The notes below the pieces were generated by a model that searched no databases, was not told where the DNA came from, and worked only from the letters and a program-made list of their open reading frames with translations. Made by a program: the position numbers and the translations under genes. A DNA stretch of 64,000 bases. Origin: a virus. Shown here one piece after another: positions 6,282 through 38,654 of the stretch (its first letter is position 1; the number at the start of each line of letters is the position of its first letter). The stretch covers positions 6,305 to 70,304 of the IMG/VR virus record IMGVR_UViG_3300027896_005310; one strand, 5' to 3'.

Positions 6282-7057
6282 AACTGTTAACCATAAATAC
6301 TGATTCTAAACCTTTTGAAGAAATTCAAGAACATTTTGATTGTCTTTATAGTACATCTCCTAATTTTATTATAAATAAAAAAATAAAAATACCTTATTTC
6401 TATAATATTTATGCTGGAGAATTAGAGGGAGAACTAAATTATAATATATTCCGAGATTTTTATTCAAAACTTCAAGGAGCTAATGCTGTTTTTGTAAATG
6501 ATAAAAAATTAAACAAATATGCAGAATGGTTAGATTTGAATTCTTTTTGGGTACCTAATAGTTTAATAGAAAATCAATTCATTTTTAAAAGTAAAAGATT
6601 TTTTACTCCTAAATTACATATAGGAATACTTTCCCCCACTGCTCCGGATATTCAAATCCTATTAGATAAACTTTTATTTATTAAAAAAACTAATTGGGAA
6701 TTTCACATAACAGACAAAAAAGATATTCACGAAAATTGCCATATATTCTTAAATTTATCAAAAGACTACTGTTTCCCCAATAATGATAGCTTAGAAGCAA
6801 TGAGGAGTGGTTGTGTGCTTATTAGCACTAATCTACACGGAAATCATACTCATATAATATTCGATGATATACACTATATCAAATTAGATTTTTTAGATGT
6901 AAATATAATTTTAGATGCTCTACGCTATAGTGATAAACGAAGAGAAAAACTTGAGCGTATAGCTTTAGGGGGAGCAAAAATGGTAAATAAATATTTTACT
7001 TCTAAAAATTTAGATAATCAAAAATTAAATATTATTAGAAGAGAATTAGGAGGCTAA
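6278..7057 (+). CDS. divergent GT-B glycosyltransferase-like protein
   Basis: LEAMRSGCVLIST motif; ATGA overlap with upstream glycosyltransferase. Confidence 0.55.
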   Translation: MKLLTINTDSKPFEEIQEHFDCLYSTSPNFIINKKIKIPYFYNIYAGELEGELNYNIFRDFYSKLQGANAVFVNDKKLNKYAEWLDLNSFWVPNSLIENQFIFKSKRFFTPKLHIGILSPTAPDIQILLDKLLFIKKTNWEFHITDKKDIHENCHIFLNLSKDYCFPNNDSLEAMRSGCVLISTNLHGNHTHIIFDDIHYIKLDFLDVNIILDALRYSDKRREKLERIALGGAKMVNKYFTSKNLDNQKLNIIRRELGG

Positions 7058-16678: not shown

Positions 16679-18826
16679 TTATTTTTTAATATAGAGCATA
16701 GTAGTATAATTTTTCAATTGATTTAAATATTTTTGTTCTGTTTTATTTTTACCTAAAACCATAACATATTTTCCCTTTAGTGGGATTTTAATTTTAGCTG
16801 ATTCGTTTAATATTTTTTTTTGCCAAATCTTCCATTTTAATATAATTTCAGAAGGTATTTTACTTAAATTTTTAAAACCATTTTCTTTAAACCAAACATC
16901 TTCAGTTTTAATATTATTTTCTTTTAACCATTTTTTTAAACCAGATGTTCTGCTTAAATATTGTCTAGAAAAAAAATCGCCCTCTTTAAAATAAGGATGT
17001 TGATAAATAGTGTCAGCTCCAAAATTGTTACCTAAATAATCAAAATTACATGCTTGATATATAATTCCTAATTCAGAAGCTTTTGGATCAGCATAGCCTA
17101 TAAAAAGTCTTTTATCTGTGTTTTTTACCATCCAATTTAAAGAAAACATAATAAAAGAACTACCTAAATTTTTAGGTGCCCAGGAAGCTGAACATCCTCT
17201 TTGTATTAAAGCTTCATATTTTTTTGTATCCTCTCCTAATAAAGTAGAATAAGCATTAGGTTCATTAATTAATACTACTCCCACAAGCATCTGTTGATAT
17301 CTAGCTGTAAAAGTCCATTTTACAGAATTTCCAACTTTTTGTAACCATTCATATTTTTCTACAAATGATCTAATTCCATCATTAAAATCTTCTATATTAT
17401 ATACTATATCTGTAATTTTAATTTTTTTATAATCAAAAGATAAATCTCGAATATCATTTTTAAAATCTTTATCTTTTATTATTTTTTGATGTGCTAAATC
17501 TATTAATTTGTAATCAAATAAAGGAAGAATATATTTGGATATTAAACTTTGAAATTTTAAAGCATTTTCATATAAAAAAGTAATTCGATTTTCTCTATTA
17601 AGTTCAAAATCAATATCCCATTTTGTTTTAAAAACTTCTTTAACTTTTTCCAAGTCTTCCTTTAAAAAAGATTCAGTACAAATAGTTAGTGTGTGCTGAT
17701 CATCTTTATAACCATCATCCATATACCAAATAGCTAAACCTCTAGCATCTAATTCTTTAACTACATTAGGATTTAAATATTTTTCATAATTAGTTTTATA
17801 AAATAAAGGATAAATGTCCGTAAAAATTTTATTTTGTATCGTTTTAAATACAACTGCTTTATAAATTTGATTATTTCTTTTATCTAAACGATCTACTATT
17901 TTAATTCCTGAATTTTGAGTATAATTTTTTAATAATTGATATTTATATTCTACATATTCTTTTTGTTTAAATCCATGTGCAATTTTTAATTGTGAATTAG
18001 AATGACTATGTCCTAAATAACTATCTCCCAAAATAGTACCATAAATCAATTGCTTTTGAGTTTCAGAAATATAATTTAAAGGCATATCATTTTTATCTAA
18101 TAAAATTTCTGAATACAAAGAATATCTAATTAAAGTTTTTTTAATAGCATCTGCGCTTACTCTAAATAAGATTGCTATTTCTTCGATTGATTTTTTTTGA
18201 TTTATATATAAATCTTCAATTTTAATTTTTTTTATATGCGCTCCATCTTCTCGTCTTAAAAATATATTAAATTTTCTTAAAGATTTATAAATAGCTGATA
18301 TACCTTTATTTAAAAATTTTGTTATTTCTAAAAGAGATAACTTTTTATTAACATATAAATCATATAATTCTACTTCTGTTATTTCAGAAAAATTTCTTTT
18401 TTGTTTTTCAATATTGTGAGCTGTTTTACTTTGATTTAATCCAGAAGTAGACATTCCTATAATTTTAGAAATTTCAATATCTTTCAAACCTTGATTTTTT
18501 AAAATTTGATATTCTTCAGGATTAAATTTAACTTTTCTAAAAGAAATATTAAATTGAGCTAATCTATTAGCTAAAGCAGATCTTGATATGTTTAATTCTT
18601 CAGCAGCTTCATCTATAGTTTTACCACTATTTGCATATTTTTGTAAAATTTCAGGAGTTATTTTTTCTAACTCTTCAAGAGTAATTCTATCCGTTTTAGC
18701 AAAAGATATGTCCAATTTTCTACAATATCTTTGTAAAGTAGATTTAGAAATAGCTAATTTTTTTGCTGCTTCTATTAAGGAATATTCATTTTTTAATTCA
18801 AGTATAATTTGTTTAGTGATTTCCAT
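16679..18826 (-). CDS. HTH repeats + LAGLIDADG endonuclease + C-terminal Mom-like (GNAT) DNA-modification domain
   Basis: LIYGTILGDS and LAIWYMDDG motifs; C-terminal FVEKYEWL...APKNLGS..FIGYADPKASELGIIYQACNFDYLG resembles the Mom family. Confidence 0.75.
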   Translation of the reverse strand: MEITKQIILELKNEYSLIEAAKKLAISKSTLQRYCRKLDISFAKTDRITLEELEKITPEILQKYANSGKTIDEAAEELNISRSALANRLAQFNISFRKVKFNPEEYQILKNQGLKDIEISKIIGMSTSGLNQSKTAHNIEKQKRNFSEITEVELYDLYVNKKLSLLEITKFLNKGISAIYKSLRKFNIFLRREDGAHIKKIKIEDLYINQKKSIEEIAILFRVSADAIKKTLIRYSLYSEILLDKNDMPLNYISETQKQLIYGTILGDSYLGHSHSNSQLKIAHGFKQKEYVEYKYQLLKNYTQNSGIKIVDRLDKRNNQIYKAVVFKTIQNKIFTDIYPLFYKTNYEKYLNPNVVKELDARGLAIWYMDDGYKDDQHTLTICTESFLKEDLEKVKEVFKTKWDIDFELNRENRITFLYENALKFQSLISKYILPLFDYKLIDLAHQKIIKDKDFKNDIRDLSFDYKKIKITDIVYNIEDFNDGIRSFVEKYEWLQKVGNSVKWTFTARYQQMLVGVVLINEPNAYSTLLGEDTKKYEALIQRGCSASWAPKNLGSSFIMFSLNWMVKNTDKRLFIGYADPKASELGIIYQACNFDYLGNNFGADTIYQHPYFKEGDFFSRQYLSRTSGLKKWLKENNIKTEDVWFKENGFKNLSKIPSEIILKWKIWQKKILNESAKIKIPLKGKYVMVLGKNKTEQKYLNQLKNYTTMLYIKK

Positions 18827-18829
18827 ATA

Positions 18830-21304
18830 TTATATATCCTCATCAGAAAAATTCAATTCTAACCAATTATTAAATATAATATCTGAACAAAAAACATAAT
18901 TTTTTAAATCATCTTTTAAATGAAAATAAGGTTTTGTTTTATTAAACATTCTTTTATATCTAGTAGAAGGTATATTTTCTAATCTATCAAGTTCATAAAA
19001 AGAAAGTATTCTACCATATTTTAAACAAACACTTCTATAATCTATTATTTTTTGCTTTGAACTATTAAATTCTTTATTCAAAGGCAATCCCGCAAAAATT
19101 AAAAAATTATTCCAAGAATCAAATTTTTTTTCTATTGTAGAAGTACTATATGGAAATAAATCAAAATTCTTTTTAAGAAATTTTCGACTAGTGTTAATTT
19201 TTTGATTATATAAAGCATTTATTTTTTTAACACAATCATCTATATTAAAAAATAAATAATCTTTATTAAGCGATTTTTTTATTATTTTTTCTTCAATTTT
19301 TCTAGAAATTTTATCAATACTGTTTTTTTGAAGAATAAATAAATTCTCATATTTTGTAATATGTTTGTTTTCTTTTTTATTATAAATACTGCCTAAAGGA
19401 ATATAATATTTAGCAACAAGTCCAAATTTATTATCACATAATATAAAAAAATCTTCTATAAGATTATAATTCTCATAATTATTTAAAACTATAGCATAAT
19501 ATCCTTTATCTACTAATAAATCATAAATATTCTCAATAGTTTTTTTCAAAAAATTTTCACGCCAAATCTCATATAAAGGATATTGTTTAATACTTTGAGT
19601 TTGTTCTTCAGAATATTTTTCTAAATCAAAATAAGGAGGACAAGATAAAACTAGCCCTATTTTGTTTTTTAATTCTAAAGGACAATATTTTTCAGAACAA
19701 TTTTTAATAATTTGAATATTTTTATTAATATTAATTTTTTCAATCATTTTTAATGAAGCTTCAAAAGTTTCTGAATTAGGATCTAAAGATATAATGTTAT
19801 TTATTTTTGAAAATAAAGTACCTAATAATTTACCACCATATCCCGCATCGGGAAGATAAACATAATCATTTATGTCAAAATTATCACAAATCCATCTAGC
19901 AACCATTGGTTTAAAGTTAGCAACTGTTCTAAACATTAAATCAATACCTGTACGCATAGGAGAATGATTAACGCCTTCTGCATAATTAAATCTATTTAAT
20001 ATTAATTTTTTTAAATTTAAATCATCTAACCAAGAATTAAAAGGAGAAGCATAATTTTTATAATTAGCTTTATAAATATGAGGCATAAAAAATTTACAAA
20101 TATCTAAACCTTGAGTTTTAAATTCCAAAATTCCATTTATTTCTTTTATTGTAGCTTTTTTAAAATTATTTAATTTATAATCCCATTGTTCATCATATAT
20201 TTTTATATAAGGAAAACCAACAGTTCGATAATATTTAAAAACTTGATCTATCCAAAGTTCTTTTTCATCTTCAGACAAAAGATGAAAAAGTCTAGATTTA
20301 TATTTTTTTATATTAAAATCATAACCTAAAATAGCTCTATTTCTAAATTCTTTTAATGTTTCTTCAGAGATTTGATTCAAAAATTCTATAGGAATTTTGT
20401 ATAACATATCTGGGGTAATATACTTTTTTATTATATTAAAAAAATTATCTTTATTTCTTATTCTTAAAAAATTCATACCAGTCATAGAGGGGTAATTCTT
20501 TATTACAATATCTAAATTTTCTTTTTCATTTAAAAAATTTACAAATTCTTTTAAATTTTCATTAAAAGCAGTGTTTATTATAGGATAATTATCCTTAAGT
20601 TCTCCATCCCCAAAATACCAAAAAGCTATATAACCATTATTCCAATTATTTTTTAAATAACTTAAAGGTATTATTTTTTGATTATCAATATAAAAAATAT
20701 CGCGCATAATTTTAAATTCTTTTGTAGCTTTTGTTTTAAACCCTATTTCTTTTTCTCCTTTTTTAGGAAGATCATAAAATATTTTAAGAGATAAGGGCAA
20801 TAAATCAATATATATTTTTTTAAGATATAAATCTTGAGAAATAGCGTGACTTTCTTTATAAAAAGCTGTTTCTTTACCAGAAAAATATACACCACCATCA
20901 CCTAATAAACTGCCTGTTACAATTATTTTTTGATATTCAGTTAAAGAAGCGATTGATCCTTGTTCTATAAGAATTTTAGATTTTAAACCTCTTTTTTTTC
21001 TATCATTTTTTATTTTTAAAGTAGAACAACCAAATTTTAATGCAAATTCTTCAAGAGTATTATTTAAATAATATTGATTGAATTCTTCATCAGTTAATTG
21101 ATTAATATTAGGATAACTTTTATTTTTAGATTGAAGTAACCTATCAAATTGAGATTTTGTCTTAATATTATATCTTTTTCTTAAATTTGAAATAGTAACA
21201 TCTGAACAATTATATAAATCACCTATTTCTCTATCACTCAAATTTTTTGTTACATATAAAGAATAAAGCAATTCTGAAGATAATTTTTTTTCAATTCCTA
21301 GCAT
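18830..21304 (-). CDS. HTH + LAGLIDADG endonuclease + amino-methyltransferase-like domain
   Basis: VTGSLLGDG and AFWYFGDG motifs; NFKPMVA, YLPDAGYGGKLLG (motif I-like), SCPPYFDLEKYS (motif IV-like); C-terminal TIEKKFDSWNN homing-endonuclease-associated repeat. Confidence 0.75.
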   Translation of the reverse strand: MLGIEKKLSSELLYSLYVTKNLSDREIGDLYNCSDVTISNLRKRYNIKTKSQFDRLLQSKNKSYPNINQLTDEEFNQYYLNNTLEEFALKFGCSTLKIKNDRKKRGLKSKILIEQGSIASLTEYQKIIVTGSLLGDGGVYFSGKETAFYKESHAISQDLYLKKIYIDLLPLSLKIFYDLPKKGEKEIGFKTKATKEFKIMRDIFYIDNQKIIPLSYLKNNWNNGYIAFWYFGDGELKDNYPIINTAFNENLKEFVNFLNEKENLDIVIKNYPSMTGMNFLRIRNKDNFFNIIKKYITPDMLYKIPIEFLNQISEETLKEFRNRAILGYDFNIKKYKSRLFHLLSEDEKELWIDQVFKYYRTVGFPYIKIYDEQWDYKLNNFKKATIKEINGILEFKTQGLDICKFFMPHIYKANYKNYASPFNSWLDDLNLKKLILNRFNYAEGVNHSPMRTGIDLMFRTVANFKPMVARWICDNFDINDYVYLPDAGYGGKLLGTLFSKINNIISLDPNSETFEASLKMIEKININKNIQIIKNCSEKYCPLELKNKIGLVLSCPPYFDLEKYSEEQTQSIKQYPLYEIWRENFLKKTIENIYDLLVDKGYYAIVLNNYENYNLIEDFFILCDNKFGLVAKYYIPLGSIYNKKENKHITKYENLFILQKNSIDKISRKIEEKIIKKSLNKDYLFFNIDDCVKKINALYNQKINTSRKFLKKNFDLFPYSTSTIEKKFDSWNNFLIFAGLPLNKEFNSSKQKIIDYRSVCLKYGRILSFYELDRLENIPSTRYKRMFNKTKPYFHLKDDLKNYVFCSDIIFNNWLELNFSDEDI

Positions 21305-21494: not shown

Positions 21495-22275
21495 TTATCT
21501 AGCAATAATCATACGACTTAATGCTCCTGGGTTATGACATCCCAAGCCAAGATTTTCAAAAATACTGAATCCAATAGTTCTAGCTTTGGGATCATCTGCA
21601 CTTAAAACGGTAAGTTCCGTTCTCACAGGTATCCTGCCTAGAAATTCGGCCTCAGCACAAATGTAAGCATATCCTACTGGAACTTTTCTAGAAACGATAA
21701 TTTGAGCACCCCAAAGATAAGCCATAAGACCTGTTTTTAATAAAGATGCTTGAGTTTCAATATCTAATATGTCGCGTCCCCATTTTCTAATATCCGTATA
21801 ATCTTTAGGATTCATGAAAATTCTAGCTACTCTTAAATCATGTCTTTCAACATCAGCAAAAGAATCAGCAAAGAAAGAAGCAGTAATAGGAGCTGCTACG
21901 TTAATATCAGGATTTGTTAATCCGTCATCAGCAGCTGCGCCAGCTACAGCATCAAAAATAGCAAAAATTCTACCATCTTCTTCGGCTTGAATTTCAGCTT
22001 TCGCTAGATCTTGCGCTCTTTCAATTAAGTCAAAGCGTCTTTCTTTTACTTGTGTCAATGGAATAGTAGGGTTTGAACTTAATTCAAACAATGGGAAAAT
22101 TACTCTTCTTGGTTTTTGAATTGCAAGAATGTTTTCACCCTCTTCTCCGATTACATAAGCAACAGCTCTTGGATCTTTATCATAAATTGGTAAAGCTCCA
22201 TCAGGCAATTGTTCAACTAAAAAGGCCCTACGTCCAATTGACGTATAGTCTCGTCTGAAGCGCAATGGTTGAATC
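21495..22275 (-). CDS. major capsid protein, exon 2
   Basis: RRDYTSIGRRAFLVEQLPDGALPIYDKD capsid-like sequence in head-module position; joins exon 1 in frame as AAS-M-IQPLRF, giving a 293-aa protein. Confidence 0.85.
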
Positions 22276-23402
22276 CATTTTGTTACTTAAACCTCTGTTA
22301 GAGGCGAATGAGCTTTTCAACTCATTTCTCATAGTTACCTATGAGTTCAGACTGTATCACCATTTCTGTTATTAAAACAGAAAGCCCGGCATGTCTTGAG
22401 AAATTACTTTCTCAAAATGGGAGTTATCATCATGCTCTATATAAATAGAGTTTAGATTTTCCCCAGTCGTTGAACCTTCAATGCTATTTCTAGCAAAGCT
22501 TGGCTGCTGATTGTCCTTACAAAATCTTTTTGGAATTTTATGATATAAATCTTCAGTAATTTCAGATTGAATATATTCCCAAGCTATATTATGACTTTCC
22601 TTTAAAACATGAATGTTTCCTTCACCTTCAGAATTCCAAGTAATAGAAACTTTAAGATTTAAAACATCTGCTAAAACATTAATCGCTTCTTTTGTTTTAA
22701 AAAAAGGATCAAAAGTGCAAATATCAAAACCATAACCAGTAGTACTTCCATCATCAAGGAACCAAAAAGCAAATCCTGAAGGAGTTAATTTTTGTAACCA
22801 TTGTGTAGAAATTATTTTTATACCTTCTGGATAAAGTTCTTTACGAAATTCTGTAAATTGAGGTAAAGCAAAACTTCTAGCGTCAACATAAGGAAATAAT
22901 TCTCCCCCTTCTTCAAAAGCTCTTTCACCATAAAATACTTTTGCAGTAAAGGGTTTCATAATTTCAGCTTGTTTTAACAAATACTTTTCTTGTTTGGTAG
23001 TATGTTGGCATAACCAATATCCTGTTCCTGATTTTTGAACAGCAATACAAGAATCACCTAATAAAGAACCATATAAAAATTGTTTTTGTCGATCTGAAAG
23101 AGGTACAAATCTTAAAGGGTTTCTTCGTAATCTATAATTAGGATCTGTTTTAATCCCATATATTTTACGTAATTTTCTAACCCAACTTCGAGAAATACCA
23201 TGCTCATTAGAAATTTCGGTATCACTAAATCCAATATACTCATATTGTTCACGAAGAAAATCTTCAGACAATATAGAAGATAAAGAATTTAATTTTTTTT
23301 GACTTATTATGATACCATTTATATTCATTAATTTTTTCCAAAAATCTTATAAATTGGAGTTTCCAGCAATTTACCGAGTTTAACGTCCACTGATTCTAGT
23401 TA
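22276..23402 (-). mobile_element. group I self-splicing intron, 1127 nt
   Basis: exon ends in U paired with G in P1 (GCGUCCAU/GUGGACGU); P10 GAAUC/GAUUC; P AAAUUGCUGGAAA, Q AAUCAGCAG, R UUCAACGACU, S GAUACAGUCU; terminal G at 22276. Confidence 0.92.
22372..23328 (-). CDS. intron-encoded LAGLIDADG homing endonuclease
   Basis: FLYGSLLGDS and FAFWFLDDG motifs with N-terminal HTH; 3' end reads through ribozyme elements Q and R. Confidence 0.88.
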   Translation of the reverse strand: MNINGIIISQKKLNSLSSILSEDFLREQYEYIGFSDTEISNEHGISRSWVRKLRKIYGIKTDPNYRLRRNPLRFVPLSDRQKQFLYGSLLGDSCIAVQKSGTGYWLCQHTTKQEKYLLKQAEIMKPFTAKVFYGERAFEEGGELFPYVDARSFALPQFTEFRKELYPEGIKIISTQWLQKLTPSGFAFWFLDDGSTTGYGFDICTFDPFFKTKEAINVLADVLNLKVSITWNSEGEGNIHVLKESHNIAWEYIQSEITEDLYHKIPKRFCKDNQQPSFARNSIEGSTTGENLNSIYIEHDDNSHFEKVISQDMPGFLF

Positions 23403-23503
23403 ATGGACGCGGCCAGTTTAGCTCTGCCAGCAGCTGTTTTAATATACTCTGAGATAACTTGTTCTTTTACCTCATTACTGGCGGGTTGATTGTTTGTTAA
23501 CAT
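23403..23503 (-). CDS. major capsid protein, exon 1
   Basis: AGGAGG RBS; MLTNNQPASNEVKEQVISEYIKTAAGRAKLAAS plus AT; unspliced frame stops two codons later. Confidence 0.85.
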
Positions 23504-23533
23504 AAAAAATTCCTCCTAAAAATATTAATATTT

Positions 23534-23565
23534 TCTGATACCATTTCCTTAAAGGCAGTATCAGA
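23534..23565 (-). promoter_or_regulatory. 5' UTR stem-loop motif, copy 1, upstream of capsid gene
   Basis: UCUGAUAC-UG-CCU(UUA)AGG-AAAUG-GUAUCAGA. Confidence 0.55.
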
Positions 23566-24127
23566 TTCTCATTATAAATCTCATATAAGGGTTAGCTGGA
23601 GTTGGAGATTGAGTAATAATACCAATTATTGTAGAAGCACCAGGAGCTTGTCCCCCGTTTAAACCAGCAGCAATAGTCAATAGACCATTTTGTGAACAAT
23701 AAAGTGGCAATCCATAAGCATAATTAGGTAAAATTGAATTAATTCCATTAAAATCACTTGTTTCATAAAGATTTACTTCATAAACTCCCATACCCATTAC
23801 GAAGACACCTTTTTCAGAAGCAGCAGCAGAAGATGATTCATAAGCGTTTCCAGCTAAATCATTAACATATAGTCCTACGATTGAATCAGTTGGTCCTGAA
23901 CCAGCTCCTACAAGTCCTTCAGCTTTAATCGCAGCAACTGAACCAGCTAAACAACCTAATTTTGTAATTCCAGCTGTAGTAGTATTAGCTACTAATTGAG
24001 CAGTCCCTGTAGTATTTGATTTTGTGAAAGCAGCACTTACTAGACCCTCAATTGAATTTCGAACACCTAAATAAAGAATCCTTAAAATTCCACCGCCTTC
24101 TACAAGAAAACCAGTTGTACTTGACAT
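23561..24127 (-). CDS. head decoration/cement protein
   Basis: G/A/S/T-rich 188 aa directly upstream of the capsid gene; AGGAGG RBS; LYCSQNGLLT..IIGII pattern. Confidence 0.7.
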   Translation of the reverse strand: MSSTTGFLVEGGGILRILYLGVRNSIEGLVSAAFTKSNTTGTAQLVANTTTAGITKLGCLAGSVAAIKAEGLVGAGSGPTDSIVGLYVNDLAGNAYESSSAAASEKGVFVMGMGVYEVNLYETSDFNGINSILPNYAYGLPLYCSQNGLLTIAAGLNGGQAPGASTIIGIITQSPTPANPYMRFIMRI

Positions 24128-24157
24128 AAATTATTCCTCCTAAAAAATTAATAATAA

Positions 24158-24192
24158 AATCACCATTTTCCTATTTAAATAAGACAGTGATT
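24158..24192 (-). promoter_or_regulatory. 5' UTR stem-loop motif, copy 2, upstream of decoration gene
   Basis: AAUCAC-UG-UCUUAU(UUAA)AUAGGA-AAAUG-GUGAUU. Confidence 0.55.
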
Positions 24193-24332
24193 ATTTTTTT
24201 AAACAAAAGATGCGCAATATTAATTGATTATTTTTAAAAAAACTTTTACATTCAAAAAATAAATTAGTAATATTTATATAGATTTGATTTTCAAAATTAT
24301 AGAATTAATTAATTTTTAAAGGAGAATACAAA

Positions 24333-24521
24333 ATGAGTACTTTTATTTTTACAGGAAAACCTACTTATGGTCTGACCACTAAAGATATTAAAGTTCCAAA
24401 TGGAACAGGTTTTACTATCTATGCTGGTGTTATTCCATTTACTACACAAATTAAAACAGATAATGCTGTTGAAATAGCTTATTTTAAATCTAATGTTCAA
24501 ATATTTAAGGCAATATTATAA
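24333..24521 (+). CDS. small putative virion protein
   Basis: AAGGAG RBS; 62 aa, predicted beta-rich. Confidence 0.6.
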   Translation: MSTFIFTGKPTYGLTTKDIKVPNGTGFTIYAGVIPFTTQIKTDNAVEIAYFKSNVQIFKAIL

Positions 24522-24533
24522 GGAGGTTTTTAT

Positions 24534-24731
24534 ATGGCACTTTTTAAATACATAGGATCATATGCTAAGGAAAATGGAAAAGTAGATGTGAACGTAGGCA
24601 GATATAGTTTTTTAAACATTACTCCAAACAATTTTGAAATTGAAGTTCCTGATGATTCAACAGAAGCTACTTGGTTAAATGTAGCTATAGATCCATTTGA
24701 ACAATCTTATTTATACGAACAACAAGTATAA
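24534..24731 (+). CDS. small putative virion protein
   Basis: AAGGAGG RBS; 65 aa; followed by terminator. Confidence 0.65.
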   Translation: MALFKYIGSYAKENGKVDVNVGRYSFLNITPNNFEIEVPDDSTEATWLNVAIDPFEQSYLYEQQV

Positions 24732-24747
24732 TTTTCTTTAACATTAT

Positions 24748-24786
24748 AAAATAAAAAAGCCCCAAATTTTGGGGCTTTTTTATTTT
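24748..24786. terminator. bidirectional intrinsic terminator
   Basis: aaaaaagcccca..tggggctttttt between convergent genes. Confidence 0.85.
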
Positions 24787-24813
24787 TAGCATTTAGATTG
24801 TATTAATTAATTT

Positions 24814-25983
24814 TTAATCCTTACGCCACAAGCTAGATAATTTTTCTATTTCGCTATTACCTTTAGAAGCAGTTACATTTTTCAATGTTTTAATTTTAGC
24901 TTCTACTTTTTGTTCAGGTTTTACTTCTTCTTTTTCTTCTTCTTCTTCCTCTTCTTCTGCAGCTTTAAAAAGTTGAGCTAAAATAGCTTCATCTTCTTTA
25001 GATGCCATAACTTCATTAAGATCATCAAAAGAGATATCTAAATTACCTTTTTTCTCTTCTACTTTCTCAGTAATTTCATCAATTTTCTCTTTTGGTTCTT
25101 CTTCACTTTTTTTTACTTCAGAAGATTCTTTTTTATCATATTCTGGTTTTTGTTCTTGTTGTGCAGGCAAAGGCAAAGGTTTAACTTCTTCAGCTTTTAC
25201 TTCTGGAGGAGTCATTTGTTTTTCTTCAACCTTAGTAGTATCTTCTTTTTTTTCTTCGGGTTTTACTTCTTCTTCAGCTTTTTTTCCTTTTTCTTCTTCT
25301 TCTTCTTCTTCTTCAGTTGCTATTGCATCTAAAACTGCTTCTACAATCGCAGCAATTTTATCTTTACTCATTTCATTTTTTTTATCTTCCTCTTCTTCCT
25401 CTTCTTCTTCAGCTTTTTTTCCTTTCCCTTCCTCTTCTTCTTCCTCTTCTTCAGCTTTTTTTACTTTTTCCTCTTCTTCTTCTTCCTCTTCTTCTTCAGC
25501 ACATTTTTTCTTTGTTTCCTCTTCTTCCTCTTCCTCTTCTTCACTTACAACATTTAAAACAGCATCAACGATTTTTGCTATTCTAGCTTCATTAATATTA
25601 TCTTCGAATTCACGAATTCTACGTAAAGTAGAAAGAACAGATTTATTTGACATAGTCATATAATCTACTGCTTGTCTTTCAATAACATCTACTGGAGCTT
25701 CTGGAAGCATAAGTTCTGCCATTTTTAAACAACGTAAAGCTTTTGCTTCTAATTCTTTTGCTTCATGTACCATATGAGCATATGTTTTCATTTTAGCATG
25801 TCCTGATGGTTCACGACCAGCAGCATTTTCTTCATCCCATGGACGATTCATGTTTGGGGTTTCAGCCCAAGAATCTGGATTTCCAGTTTCATATTTTTCT
25901 ACTGGTGGGTTTGGATGTGGAGCAGTCATAGTAGTAGGACTGTCATTTAAACCCATTGATTTCTTTGTTAATCGATCTCTCAT
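24814..25983 (-). CDS. scaffold/prohead core-like acidic protein
   Basis: poly-Glu tracts after repeated KKA; lies between protease-like and decoration/capsid genes; AGGAGG RBS. Confidence 0.6.
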   Translation of the reverse strand: MRDRLTKKSMGLNDSPTTMTAPHPNPPVEKYETGNPDSWAETPNMNRPWDEENAAGREPSGHAKMKTYAHMVHEAKELEAKALRCLKMAELMLPEAPVDVIERQAVDYMTMSNKSVLSTLRRIREFEDNINEARIAKIVDAVLNVVSEEEEEEEEETKKKCAEEEEEEEEEEKVKKAEEEEEEEEGKGKKAEEEEEEEEDKKNEMSKDKIAAIVEAVLDAIATEEEEEEEEKGKKAEEEVKPEEKKEDTTKVEEKQMTPPEVKAEEVKPLPLPAQQEQKPEYDKKESSEVKKSEEEPKEKIDEITEKVEEKKGNLDISFDDLNEVMASKEDEAILAQLFKAAEEEEEEEEKEEVKPEQKVEAKIKTLKNVTASKGNSEIEKLSSLWRKD

Positions 25984-35338: not shown

Positions 35339-35806
35339 TTAATCCTTTTTCGTATCAACAATCTCATTGATATCTAATCTTTTAAGACAATCAGAACCCA
35401 ATCTTAAATTATCTAAATTACTTTTAAGAGATCCTACATAATTATTTGTTTTATTAAAATTTTCTAAATTATATAACTTAAATATTTTGTCATCTAAAAT
35501 AGAAATATCTTTACAAATTTTAGTATATAAATCTTTTATTTCTTTATCTAATTCTATAGGGTCTTCTTTTTTTTCAAGCCTCAAAGATAATATATATCTA
35601 GAAGCAGAATTTAATTTATCTATACCCCTCTTAATAAATATAAGTTTATTATTATTAGAAAGTTCATTCTCTTTATATATAGAATAAAAAATTTCTTGCA
35701 ATTCTTTTATTCCTTTCTTTAATATATTAATTTTAGAATCTATGTTAGAAAATTTTTCATTGTTTTGTTTTCTTTTATTTATAGAAGAAATATTCTTATC
35801 TACCAT
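35339..35806 (-). CDS. hypothetical protein
   Basis: 155-aa ORF between terminase and portal. Confidence 0.55.
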   Translation of the reverse strand: MVDKNISSINKRKQNNEKFSNIDSKINILKKGIKELQEIFYSIYKENELSNNNKLIFIKRGIDKLNSASRYILSLRLEKKEDPIELDKEIKDLYTKICKDISILDDKIFKLYNLENFNKTNNYVGSLKSNLDNLRLGSDCLKRLDINEIVDTKKD

Positions 35807-38654
35807 TTTTAGTCATCCAATTATTAGCACGTTGACGACGTGAATTTCTTTTAGTATCAATTACATTATGTAATTTATTTTTCATCACTTGATATTGTGT
35901 AGTTGTTTGCATATAAGTATGCCTATTACTAGAAGTAGACATATTTCCAGAGACTAATCCTTTTCTCAAAGCATCAGATGCTAACCAAACGCTTCGAGCT
36001 AAAGCATCAGATAAATCATCATGACTTCCTTTCATTCTAGGGGATTCTACTTCAATTACATTTTTAGAATGTTGTTTTACTTGTAATTTAAGTAATTCGC
36101 TTATAAGAGCACCATCTGTATATTCATCAGGTTTTACATTATACAATCTTAATTTTCTGTCGATTATTAACATCATTAAATTTTGATAAATTTCAGAATT
36201 AAAATTTCTAGTGTGATATATAAGATCAAATTGAGGTAATCGTCTCTTACTCAAATTTTGAGCTACTACTATACCATTATGTTGATCTAAAAGACCTTTT
36301 ACCACATGAAATTTAGAACAAATTTCTGATATCCAATCAGCAATAGATTCAAAATCTAATATATCTAAATTTTCATACGGAGCAACGCCTGCTTGTCTAG
36401 ATTCAATATAATCTAACTCTATTTTATCTACTTTTTTTCCTTCCTCATCAGTTATTTGTGTAATATGGGTAACAGCTATAGCAGTACCATCTTCTTTGAA
36501 TCCTACATCTAATCCTAAAAAATGAGGAGTCCTAGATAATCCTACTTTTTTTGGTCTTAATTCAGGAACGATTACTTTTCTTAAATATTCTTCGGGCAAC
36601 CAAGATCTTATTCTGTCTGAAAATTCTGCTCCAAATTCACACTCATAAACTAAAGGATCAGCTTTATATCTAGATTTAAAAAATTCTGGAGTTAAATAAG
36701 GATTAATTTCCCAACTAGGAGCTTTTACCAACAAAAGATGTTCAGCTCCTTCCAAGGCTAAATTATGTAAATCCCACAACACTCCTGATTTAGTCAAAGG
36801 AGAAGAAATATTTATAATTCTTCCTTCTGATTTAAAAGTAGCTACCGAAGGAGTAATAGCATCATATACTGCTTTGTCTGATTTATTAGACTGTGTCTTT
36901 TCATCTACAAAGTGAGCTTGTTCGTCCATTATAACTAATAAATTACCCACCCCTCTCATAGCTCTAGCAGAGCAAGGAGATGATCTTACTATAATAGAAG
37001 ATTTTCCCTCATCTCCATATTTTTCTATATCTCTTCTACTTCTAATTAAAACTTTATCTGCTAGGGGTTTTCCCATGTATCTATGAAAATAATTACATTG
37101 TGAAAAATGTCCTAAAATTACTCTAAATAGAGTATTAGCTTGATCTTCCGTAGTAGCAATAGTAGTTAATTGAATTTCAGCATCAGGAAGTAATCCAAAA
37201 TATTTTTGAGGATGATATATTTTTAATATTCTATAAGTCTCATAAGCAGCTATCCAAGAAGATATGGTAGAATTATGAGAAATAATATCATTGCCTATTA
37301 TATTTGTTCCTTTTACTTCCAAAGAAACTGTTGGCATTCTTCCTACATCTTTAACTTCTTTTATTGTATCCCAATATACTTTTGCATTAACCAAATTTAG
37401 CATTAACTCATCTTTAACTTTGTGTACTTTTCCTACAGAAAATCTTCTACTTCCAAATCTTGTGTATTTTGCTCTCAAATAAGCACCGGGAGGTAATCCA
37501 CTCCACGCATTAAATTGAGCTGTACTCCTTTTTGCACTTCCTGCTAATACACTCAATTCTTTTTCTTTTTTAAATATACCTATTTCTTTTTCAAATCTAA
37601 GAACATTTTCTTTATTAGCTATAGCAAGAGACCAAAAAGATAAATTACTTTTTGGAGGGCGTATTAATGTTATAATTCCAAATTTTAAAAGTTCTCTTTG
37701 TATATCTTCTACAAATTCTTTAAAAGGATAATAAAAATATAAAAATCCCCTATCTGTATTTTTTCTCATTTCTATTTGAGTAGTATAATAAAAAATTATA
37801 TTTAAAAATTTTTTTAATTCATTTTTGGGAGATTTTTTAATTACATCTGGAATTTTTCTATGTCTATAAGAATTTTTTTCTATACCATATTGATGAGCAA
37901 GCATTTCTGCTCTAATTTCTCCAATAGATGCTGTACCAAATAAATCTTGAGAAGAAGCTATTGCAACAAAATCTCCTTTTTTTAAATTACTAGCTTCTAC
38001 CCATCCTGGTTCTTCCTGCTCATTCTGCCACACTAAATAGGGATGATTTTTAGTTACTATTTCGCTTCTACCTAAAGTAGTAGTAACTTTCACTGTTTCC
38101 TGTATCCCATTATTCTCTGCTAATATATCATAAGTTATTTTTTTATTCCAATTCTCATCGTAAGTGAATATTCCTATTTTCTCACCTTTTTTTAATCTAT
38201 CTAAAAGTTCTCGATAATTTAATGTACCTTCCGTAGTAGTAATTTCAGAATATTCCCAAACACATTTAGTTCCTCGTCTTCCTATTATTAGTACTAGTTC
38301 ATTCCTAACCTTATCATCTATATATCTTATATTACATCTACCCTCATTATATAAATAATTTAAATACTCTTGTTCGGTAAATTCATATAAGATATGCTCA
38401 TTAAATTTATCTCTTACTATTATTGTTTTTATCTTATCATTTAAAGGTATTTTATAATATAACTTCAAAATAAATTTTTGACCGGGCATTAGAGGAAGAG
38501 TTTTTTCATTAAGATTAAGTCCCCAAGGCGCTTCTAAAAAAGTAATAATATCTTTAATATCAGATTCATTTCCTGCATCTTTTGCAAAATTAGAAGCTAA
38601 TCTACTTATTGAATTAGAATTGAAATTAGTAGTAGGAGGATAATTAGGTTTGAT
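35796..38654 (-). CDS. terL: terminase large subunit, intein-containing, probable ATC start at 38654
   Basis: Walker A GRRGTK/S split by intein, Walker B VIMDE, ISSP, nuclease GLDVG and HDDLSDA; frame open 55 codons upstream of the ATG to an ATC preceded by AAGGAG. Confidence 0.85.
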   Translation of the reverse strand: MKPNYPPTTNFNSNSISRLASNFAKDAGNESDIKDIITFLEAPWGLNLNEKTLPLMPGQKFILKLYYKIPLNDKIKTIIVRDKFNEHILYEFTEQEYLNYLYNEGRCNIRYIDDKVRNELVLIIGRRGTKCVWEYSEITTTEGTLNYRELLDRLKKGEKIGIFTYDENWNKKITYDILAENNGIQETVKVTTTLGRSEIVTKNHPYLVWQNEQEEPGWVEASNLKKGDFVAIASSQDLFGTASIGEIRAEMLAHQYGIEKNSYRHRKIPDVIKKSPKNELKKFLNIIFYYTTQIEMRKNTDRGFLYFYYPFKEFVEDIQRELLKFGIITLIRPPKSNLSFWSLAIANKENVLRFEKEIGIFKKEKELSVLAGSAKRSTAQFNAWSGLPPGAYLRAKYTRFGSRRFSVGKVHKVKDELMLNLVNAKVYWDTIKEVKDVGRMPTVSLEVKGTNIIGNDIISHNSTISSWIAAYETYRILKIYHPQKYFGLLPDAEIQLTTIATTEDQANTLFRVILGHFSQCNYFHRYMGKPLADKVLIRSRRDIEKYGDEGKSSIIVRSSPCSARAMRGVGNLLVIMDEQAHFVDEKTQSNKSDKAVYDAITPSVATFKSEGRIINISSPLTKSGVLWDLHNLALEGAEHLLLVKAPSWEINPYLTPEFFKSRYKADPLVYECEFGAEFSDRIRSWLPEEYLRKVIVPELRPKKVGLSRTPHFLGLDVGFKEDGTAIAVTHITQITDEEGKKVDKIELDYIESRQAGVAPYENLDILDFESIADWISEICSKFHVVKGLLDQHNGIVVAQNLSKRRLPQFDLIYHTRNFNSEIYQNLMMLIIDRKLRLYNVKPDEYTDGALISELLKLQVKQHSKNVIEVESPRMKGSHDDLSDALARSVWLASDALRKGLVSGNMSTSSNRHTYMQTTTQYQVMKNKLHNVIDTKRNSRRQRANNWMTKNGR
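37272..38264 (-). mobile_element. 331-aa intein with degenerate LAGLIDADG core
   Basis: starts CVWEYSEI after GTK; block B VTKNHPY; ends IISHN followed by S. Confidence 0.88.

Follow-up and report, generated by a model that had tools for sequence, protein, structure and literature searches.

The stretch of DNA analysed here, referred to throughout as the window, comprises 64,000 nucleotides (nt) of the IMG/VR virus record IMGVR_UViG_3300027896_005310 (positions 6,305 to 70,304), and carries a small bulged RNA hairpin in two copies, one in the leader of dec, a homologue of the decoration protein gene of phage G, and the other between dec and the first exon of the gene of the major capsid protein (MCP). 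The source record has 70,304 bases and is estimated to be 42% complete, and the window sequence was located in one sequencing run only, a freshwater DNA metagenome that may be the sample of origin. Nearly all of the window genes are carried by the minus strand, and both hairpins are read on this strand, which is the coding one. In the 5' to 3' direction of the minus strand, some 100 nt free of genes on this strand are followed by copy A of the hairpin, an A/U-rich tract, GGAGG and dec, and then by copy B, a second tract, GGAGG and the MCP start, with the following features.

24158..24192, minus strand: bulged hairpin, copy A, within the dec 5' leader
24128..24157, minus strand: A/U-rich 17-nt spacer with UAUUAAU and Shine-Dalgarno GGAGG (24140-24136), leading to the dec ATG at 24127 (from the sequence)
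23561..24127, minus strand: dec, the 188-aa gene served by copy A (open reading frame, ORF; homologue of phage G gp26)
23534..23565, minus strand: bulged hairpin, copy B, between dec and the first exon of MCP
23504..23533, minus strand: A/U-rich 17-nt spacer with UAUUAAU and Shine-Dalgarno GGAGG (23516-23512), leading to the MCP ATG at 23503 (from the sequence)
23403..23503, minus strand: MCP exon 1, served by copy B (its translation matches the N-termini of the MCPs of the relatives)

The gene labels given in a preliminary description of this DNA, decoration and major capsid, proved sound, with the qualification that copy B precedes only the first exon of the MCP gene. In a BLASTP comparison, the dec product shares 30% identity over 146 aa (E 7e-8) with gp26 of Bacillus phage G, which is annotated in the phage G record as 'capsid decoration' and lies directly ahead of the major head protein, gp27. 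A dec homologue is also found directly upstream of the MCP gene in 80 of the 80 IMG/VR relatives, and no Pfam or PHROG family was matched by the dec protein itself. Judging from these alignments, dec is a distant homologue of the phage G decoration protein gp26. The ORF at 21495..22265 matches the major-head family phrog_2522 (8.5e-43), and the MCP is 70% identical to that of LR745208, an uncultured 485-kb phage, 55% identical to that of Tunturiibacter phage Tunturi_5, and 39% identical to that of phage G.

The two hairpins and their leaders

Both hairpins are present on the minus strand at the positions given in the preliminary description (23534-23565 and 24158-24192). Copy A reads AAUCAC-UG-UCUUAU-UUAA-AUAGGA-AAA-UG-GUGAUU, in which an outer and an inner stem of 6 bp each are separated by a tandem of U.G and G.U pairs and an AAA bulge, and the inner stem ends in a UUAA loop (14 bp, as 6+2+6). 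Copy B reads UCUGAUAC-UG-CCU-UUA-AGG-AAA-UG-GUAUCAGA, with the same tandem of wobble pairs and the same AAA bulge, but with 8 bp in the outer stem, 3 bp in the inner stem, and UUA as the loop (13 bp, as 8+2+3). The stop codon of dec, TGA (23563-23561), falls within the 5' arm of the outer stem of copy B. When folded alone, copy A reaches -8.4 kcal/mol (z = -3.4) and copy B -11.5 kcal/mol (z = -3.9), and none of 200 shuffles was as stable in either case. In the minimum-energy fold, the two UGs pair as tandem U.G/G.U wobbles, which leaves the three nucleotides AAA bulged. The asymmetric internal loop that had been described as identical in the two copies does have the same junction letters in both, but two wobble pairs with an AAA bulge describe it better than a 2x5 loop does.

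Each hairpin ends 17 nt upstream of the ribosome site, UAGGAGGAAU, and the two downstream motifs that had been noticed at similar spacing, UAUUAAU and UUUUAGGAGGAAU, are exact in both leaders, with a spacer of 17 nt in each. UUUUAGGAGGAAU is found nowhere else in the 64 kb, and with up to one mismatch there are 3 matches, 2 of them exact, against 0.66 expected. The close relatives keep the block UUAAUAAUUUU-N-AUGGAGG, and the distance from the hairpin to GGAGG ranges from 17 to 28 nt across the copies. Sequestration of the Shine-Dalgarno was rejected, given that the hairpin never covers or overlaps it and that conserved pairing with an anti-Shine-Dalgarno segment was not seen by eye.

The bare pattern ACTG-N5-25-AAATGGT is weakly enriched in the window, with 3 matches against 0.62 expected and 2 of 100 shuffles reaching 3. 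A descriptor that includes the junction letters and both stems returned 4 matches in 642,205 bases (both strands), all of which are leaders of dec or MCP, with two from the window and two from L006, its nearest relative. In a search of the whole window against Rfam 15, there were 0 matches at the gathering level, and among the 5 weak matches obtained on 22150-24350 at E <= 5, none overlaps either hairpin, which agrees with the earlier statement that the element was not recognised as a known family.

An intrinsic terminator or attenuator, which would end or thin transcription ahead of dec and MCP, is suggested by the location of copy B directly after the dec stop codon and by the U-rich stretch that follows copy A in the window. 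This explanation is highly improbable, however, given that the stems are poor in GC and that the MCP is needed in large amounts, and a terminator scan of 23300-24900 placed its 2 sites at 24393-24406, away from both hairpins. In the relatives, furthermore, the 3' flank of the hairpin is A-rich or mixed (GACAAAG, GAAAAAAAAAUG, AGUAAAUUAG), and a separate canonical terminator, formed by a GC-rich stem and a T run, is carried about 70 nt upstream of the dec copy. The candidate was rejected, as neither hairpin has a GC-rich stem followed by a U tract.

Conservation and covariation in close relatives

A query with the dec protein returned one close relative from IMG/VR (L006), eight from the JGI metagenome contigs (L086-L093), and 0 from the genome contigs. 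Given that L086 and L087 repeat the L006 sequence, there are eight distinct genomes, that is, the window, L006, and L088-L093. The dec genes of L086-L093 are 66-77% identical to that of the window and their MCPs about 90% identical, at a GC content of 30-37%. The hairpin is found ahead of dec in all eight distinct genomes (the window included) and ahead of MCP in all six whose sequence reaches the MCP start, and the contigs of L092 and L093 end inside dec. The structured cis-acting RNA element that had been proposed as common to the two head genes is, then, kept at both positions in all of the close relatives that cover them. Two of the outcomes that had been named beforehand as contradicting it, a lack of conservation in relatives and a match in Rfam, did not come about, and the proposal is supported to the extent that sequence can support it.

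The stems themselves vary considerably. Ahead of dec, the outer stems read AAUCAC/GUGAUU, CAACCGC/GUGGUUG, GUCAC/GUGAC, and GAUCGC/GUGAUU, and ahead of MCP they read GAUAC/GUAUC and AAUAC/GUAUU. The inner hairpin ranges in length from 2-3 bp, in the MCP copy of the window and L089, to approximately 16 bp, and in the MCP copy of four genomes (L006, L088, L090, and L091) it has grown to 14-16 bp through compensatory changes such as GGGUU/AACCC, GGACUC/GAGUCC, and GGGC/GUCC, which brings these copies to a total of about 22-25 bp. The loops vary as well, including UUAA, UUA, UUAU, GAAA, CUUG, and UAU, among others.

The junction between the stems is, by contrast, nearly fixed, as R-C-U-G-(U/C)-C ... 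G-(A/G)-AAA-U-G-G-U. Among the 14 distinct copies, AAA is kept in 13, the 5' UG in 13, and the C-G pair at 16-59 in all 14. Given that this junction is fixed while the inner hairpin and the loops vary, sequence-specific recognition at the junction is pointed to. The two wobble pairs are the least certain part of the structure and are only partly supported: at pair 13-65, 11 copies have U.G, one has C-G (L089, where U.G has been replaced by a standard pair), one has U-A, and one is unpaired, and at pair 14-64, 11 copies have G.U and the other three are unpaired. A K-turn, which shares with this element a 3-nt bulge between two helices, was also considered and rejected, given that the bulge-adjacent positions are U.G in 11 of 14 and G.U in 11 of 14 copies, or else G/G, U/U, or A/G mismatches, and that the tandem sheared G.A/A.G pairs of the K-turn are found in no copy.

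Two covariance models were built, R1 from the 10 short copies and R2 from all 14. In the window, R1 gives copy A 40.4 bits and copy B 48.4 bits, and R2 gives 38.5 bits (E 6e-7) and 47.9 bits (E 9e-10), respectively. The four long types of MCP leader, which lie outside the training set of R1, were recovered by it at 32.8, 31.0, 28.8, and 18.2 bits. The scan of relatives with a covariance model, which had been recommended as a check, bore the element out, given that in 671,768 bases (the window and 89 loci) R1 returned 19 matches with E <= 0.17, of which 18 are these dec and MCP leaders, the one other being a match in L008 (E 0.088) just after an MCP stop.

The earlier observation that the stems differ while pairing holds extends to the whole set of copies. 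In a model-fitted alignment of the 14 copies, 88.5% of the 182 cells are paired, in comparison with 31-60% when the partners are slid by 1-3 columns, and 8 of the 13 pairs have changes on both sides. An alignment of the 10 short copies made with MAFFT, which is not fitted to the structure, gives 86.9% paired against 28-57% when slid. The covariation score is 0.563, against no more than 0.178 for slid partners, and it is reached by 0 of 500 column shuffles, although these shuffle statistics overstate independence, because the 14 copies represent eight related genomes and two paralogous positions, and this is a point against the functional proposal made below.

A further indication comes from the wobble pairs, which make up 35 of the 182 cells (19%) as G.U or U.G when counted over the 14 copies. 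On the opposite strand these would be A/C mismatches, and the fold is therefore assigned to the sense RNA. The same count bears on the possibility of a signal at the DNA level, with the inverted repeat acting as an operator for a protein, as a cruciform, or as an N4-like hairpin promoter of late genes, given that these 35 cells are mismatches in duplex or antisense DNA. Moreover, the arm sequences differ between the copies, so that a DNA protein that reads sequence could not bind both, the conserved half-motifs lie anywhere from 9 to about 36 nt apart, and sigma-70-like sites are not enriched (7 against 9.3 expected). A signal of this kind is very unlikely, even though the 5' arm of the MCP copy reads ATTAATAC in four relatives and a conserved block, TAATCAATTAATAT, lies just upstream of copy A, as follows.

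24217..24230, minus strand: TAATCAATTAATAT block, about 25-30 nt upstream of copy A, kept in L006 and L088-L093

In five close relatives, TAATCAATTAATAT is followed by a second conserved block, AAATAGTGA. Within the window, TAATCAATTAATAT is not enriched, either with up to 2 mismatches (7 matches against 10.6 expected) or with up to 3 (80 against 94). Two ORFs on the plus strand, at 24333-24521 and 24534-24731 (62 and 65 aa, without a Pfam family), break the minus-strand block of head genes upstream of dec, and in the close relatives a terminator occupies their place. Because the upstream genes of the window are on the other strand, the promoter of dec would lie between about 24193 and 24332, and TAATCAATTAATAT is, from its position and conservation, an uncertain candidate for a local promoter element of this gene.

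The region of the ribosome site is somewhat more alike between copies A and B of the same genome (26.0 of 36 positions) than across genomes (21-23 of 36), reaching 32/36 in L091 and 28/36 in L089. Part of this likeness may be due to gene conversion rather than selection, which is a second point against that proposal, and in these sequences it appears to fit a shared trans-acting partner or gene conversion alike. Such homogenisation within genomes, together with the arrangement of the leaders as direct repeats about 620 nt apart, the lack of the element in most of the wider family, and the modest strength of the hairpins (-8 to -12 kcal/mol), may be taken to indicate a passive insulator or duplicated leader, in which the hairpin would keep the upstream RNA off the ribosome site and the junction would be inherited, and kept alike by recombination, without any trans factor. 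Across eight genomes in which dec is 66-77% identical to that of the window, however, the loops, spacers, and stems have diverged and the junction has not. Gene conversion would also have homogenised the stems, yet the outer stems of A and B differ in every genome, and this explanation is, on balance, unlikely. Taken with the pairing and covariation described above, the element is very probably a genuine, selected RNA structure.

Proposed role of the module and competing readings

We tentatively propose, with somewhat less than even confidence and by analogy with known leaders, that the module serves in the processing and stabilisation of the messenger RNA (mRNA) as well as in its translation. 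The module would consist of three parts, that is, a hairpin with a near-invariant junction, an unstructured A/U-rich tract, and a perfect Shine-Dalgarno. The transcript of the head genes would be cut by a single-strand-specific endoribonuclease of the host, of the RNase Y/E type, in the A-rich stretch just 5' of the hairpin, or would start there, and the hairpin, placed at or near the new 5' end, would guard the dec and MCP messages against decay that depends on the 5' end. The bulge and the A/U tract would be the determinants for the nuclease, and the tract, together with UAGGAGG, would lead to very high translation. Through this shared module, the levels of dec and MCP might be set in step, independently of the upstream genes. 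Transcription of the leaders, cleavage, stabilisation of the message, and the role of the junction as a recognition site are all inferred here from sequence.

Leader hairpins that set the stability or translation of messages from phage structural genes are a known kind of element. For example, the leader of gene 10 of phage T7 has a 5' stem-loop, an A/U-rich enhancer, and a strong Shine-Dalgarno, and shares with the present module this three-part layout ahead of a major capsid gene and the A/U tract before the Shine-Dalgarno. It differs in that it is not known to have a conserved bulged junction or a duplicate on a second head gene, and its sequence is unrelated. The RNase III sites of phages, such as the R sites of T7 and the Bs-RNase III sites of SP82 that act as 5' stabilisers, are likewise irregular intercistronic hairpins with an internal loop or bulge that is conserved among the sites of one phage. 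These sites, however, have about 20 bp or more, approximately two helical turns, whereas the window copies have 13-14 bp, with wobbles. Only the MCP-leader copies of L006, L088, L090, and L091, of about 22-25 bp, would be long enough for a site of this kind.

The closest layout comes from Bacillus subtilis. In the cggR-gapA and glnRA operons, RNase Y cuts close to where the first gene ends, and the product is shielded from RNase J1 by a bulged hairpin just downstream (PMC11780869). The bulge and an A/U tract immediately after the hairpin influence the cleavage, and the arrangement sets the stoichiometry of the operon (PMC11780869). The likeness thus lies in the end of a first cistron, a bulged hairpin, an A/U-rich tract, and a second cistron that is more highly expressed (PMC11780869), and copy B, which starts on the dec stop and contains the AAA bulge, followed by a 17-nt A/U tract, has this layout. 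There is no sequence similarity between the systems, and in the present case the nuclease and its cut are predicted from the layout. In addition, a copy of the module here precedes the first gene as well, behind what would be the promoter region of dec, and the junction has been kept from genome to genome, which sets it apart from these operons.

Structured RNAs have been catalogued from the same data source as the present window, with 8,495 candidates from IMG/VR and a list of those within 25 nt upstream of genes (PMC10690425). Five of the candidates lie upstream of the major-capsid family PHA00201 (PMC10690425). The catalogue covers the same kind of element, and as the comparison is by description only, overlap with the present motif is possible. 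With this proviso, and as far as its sequences indicate, the motif is new, small, and well defined, with a fixed bulged junction.

A translational operator, in which a specific RNA-binding protein, of the phage or of its host, would bind the junction and tune the translation of dec and MCP together, is a less probable explanation, though a real possibility. The combination of a near-invariant junction, covarying stems, and an inner hairpin of free length is the signature of a bulged hairpin recognised by protein, the site is found on exactly two shell genes and nowhere else in the 64 kb, and the mild concerted evolution of both leaders within a genome would also be expected under this reading. 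There are precedents in the bulged-A coat-protein operators of single-stranded RNA phages and in the post-transcriptional autoregulation of the scaffolding gene of P22. As in the coat-protein operators of MS2 and PP7, the present hairpins are small and it is the bulge, rather than the sequence of the stems, that is conserved. Those operators, however, include the start codon of the repressed gene and have a conserved loop, whereas here the loop is free and the hairpin lies 17-28 nt upstream of the Shine-Dalgarno. The variability of this distance, and a site that does not cover the Shine-Dalgarno, make simple occlusion of the ribosome site unlikely, and a stabiliser or enhancer fits better. Moreover, a Pfam scan of 28 window proteins (a partial gene set, from 42% of the genome) revealed no RNA-binding regulator, and there is no obvious need to repress the most abundant late proteins.

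A more specific form of the same idea, in which the bulged junction would be a dedicated operator read by one of the phage's own head-assembly proteins, such as decoration, capsid, or scaffold protein that has not yet been assembled, is quite unlikely. If it were true, the synthesis of the shell proteins would be fed back on assembly and the ratio of dec to MCP would be fixed through one shared RNA site, which would make it the counterpart, in a double-stranded DNA jumbo phage, of the coat-protein operators of RNA phages.

The proposal of a processing and stabilising leader has, for its part, several points to answer, which weigh against it. In the search of sequencing runs, no RNA run containing the window sequence was listed. 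The whole leaders, of 75-76 nt, are of ordinary stability (z = -0.9 and -1.1; of 200 shuffles, 35 and 32, respectively, folded as well), from which it follows that structure is limited to the hairpin, with an open tract down to the start codon. A plain stabiliser would need no fixed junction, and we know of no documented nuclease determinant of this form. Finally, the gap between dec and MCP is only 10-28 nt in 60 of 80 more distant IMG/VR relatives, and 11 nt in LR745208. Most of the phage family is without the element, which is therefore dispensable for the expression of dec and MCP in general.

The motif offers a target of about 35 nt for asking how jumbo phages coordinate the output of two shell proteins, and it could serve as a compact module for expression or stability. 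The clade in which it is maintained by compensatory change consists of uncultured freshwater relatives of Bacillus phage G.

Reach of the motif and other features of the region

A search with R2 through 594,768 further bases of 83 sources returned the two window copies only, the next match having an E of 0.42, and there are therefore exactly two copies in the window and none in the more distant relatives. Among 27 long upstream regions inspected, the hairpin was found before dec alone. As far as these sequences go, the motif is confined to a small clade, of eight genomes so far. A scan of IMG/VR DNA with the pattern CTGTC-N5-35-GAAAATGGT-N15-35-GGAGG matched at least 119 stretches, of which 80 loci were examined, and owing to its fixed letters the pattern is blind to known copies that differ in them. 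Among the 80 listed loci, the sole R2 match with E < 0.01 (L163, 8359-8405, 26.5 bits) lies inside a 485-aa ORF and was discarded as a chance match. A pattern match in the phage's own record (G000:C1:157-182) was also rejected, its outer stem having only 2 bp.

In a sister clade of low-to-mid GC content (L055, L057, L060, L067, L072, and L097-L104), a similar hairpin is found in the dec leaders of eight distinct sequences and, in L055, also in one MCP leader. It is composed of ACCCG, an inner hairpin, AU, and UGGGU, its outer stem is closed by a G.U pair, the 3' strand carries a bulge, and in the minimum-energy folds there is a 2-nt 3' bulge in six of the nine, a 1x3 loop in two, and an irregular form in one. 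Given that R2 misses these hairpins, they are treated as analogous rather than as members of the family, and homology to the window motif is, on sequence grounds, possible.

Other arrangements were observed elsewhere among the relatives. In many, the gene that precedes dec is followed by a plain hairpin rich in GC, and a group of GC-rich relatives (L043-L045, L053, L058, L074, L078, L079, L084, and L085) has a different conserved feature in the dec leader, in which a hairpin is followed by a run like CCUAGAUGUAGAUG(A/U)GAAUG, i.e., repeated GAUG units. In L106 (Tunturi_5), at about 2650-2740, a direct repeat of about 45 nt (AAAAATCACAGTGAACG..AAAACCAACTACG) is present twice upstream of the gene at the dec position.

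The MCP frame that begins downstream of copy B stops at a TAG after 34 codons, and the gene is split by a group-I-like intron of 1127 nt (22276-23402, minus strand). Joining 23503..23403 to 22275..21495 in silico gives an open frame of 293 aa, of which 260 are identical to those of the uninterrupted MCP of L006. The last base of exon 1 is U (...CAU) and the last base of the intron is G (...AUG), as at the boundaries of group I introns, and the Rfam family RF00028 matches 22328-22615 (minus strand) at 29.4 bits and E 5e-5, below its gathering score of 50. The intron contains an ORF (23328..22372, minus strand) for a LAGLIDADG endonuclease (PF03161 at 3e-20; phrog_11023), and sequences of the Bacillus phages PBS1 and AR9 share 80-84% identity with a short stretch at about 22435-22519.

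The insertion is lacking in all 80 of the IMG/VR relatives found with exon 2. On the other hand, a more distant relative, L101 (from about 2201), and L102, which has the same sequence, have an insertion at the same MCP codon (GCCGCGUCCAU|UAAC...), the first 60 nt or so of which are similar to the window intron. From this similarity and position, a single mobile intron appears to have homed to this site in both cases.

Just downstream of MCP, on the minus strand, there are two large ORFs with LAGLIDADG_2 domains (16679-18826 and 18830-21304), of which one has HTH and Mom-like parts and the other an HNH repeat, and at 35796-38489 (minus strand) an 897-aa ORF has an intein splicing domain and LAGLIDADG_3. 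The region is unusually rich in homing elements. The other window genes include further LAGLIDADG ORFs, an intein, an FtsH-like protease, a clamp loader, a beta clamp, DnaJ, and glycosyltransferases, and this gene content is consistent with a phage-G-like jumbo phage rich in homing elements.

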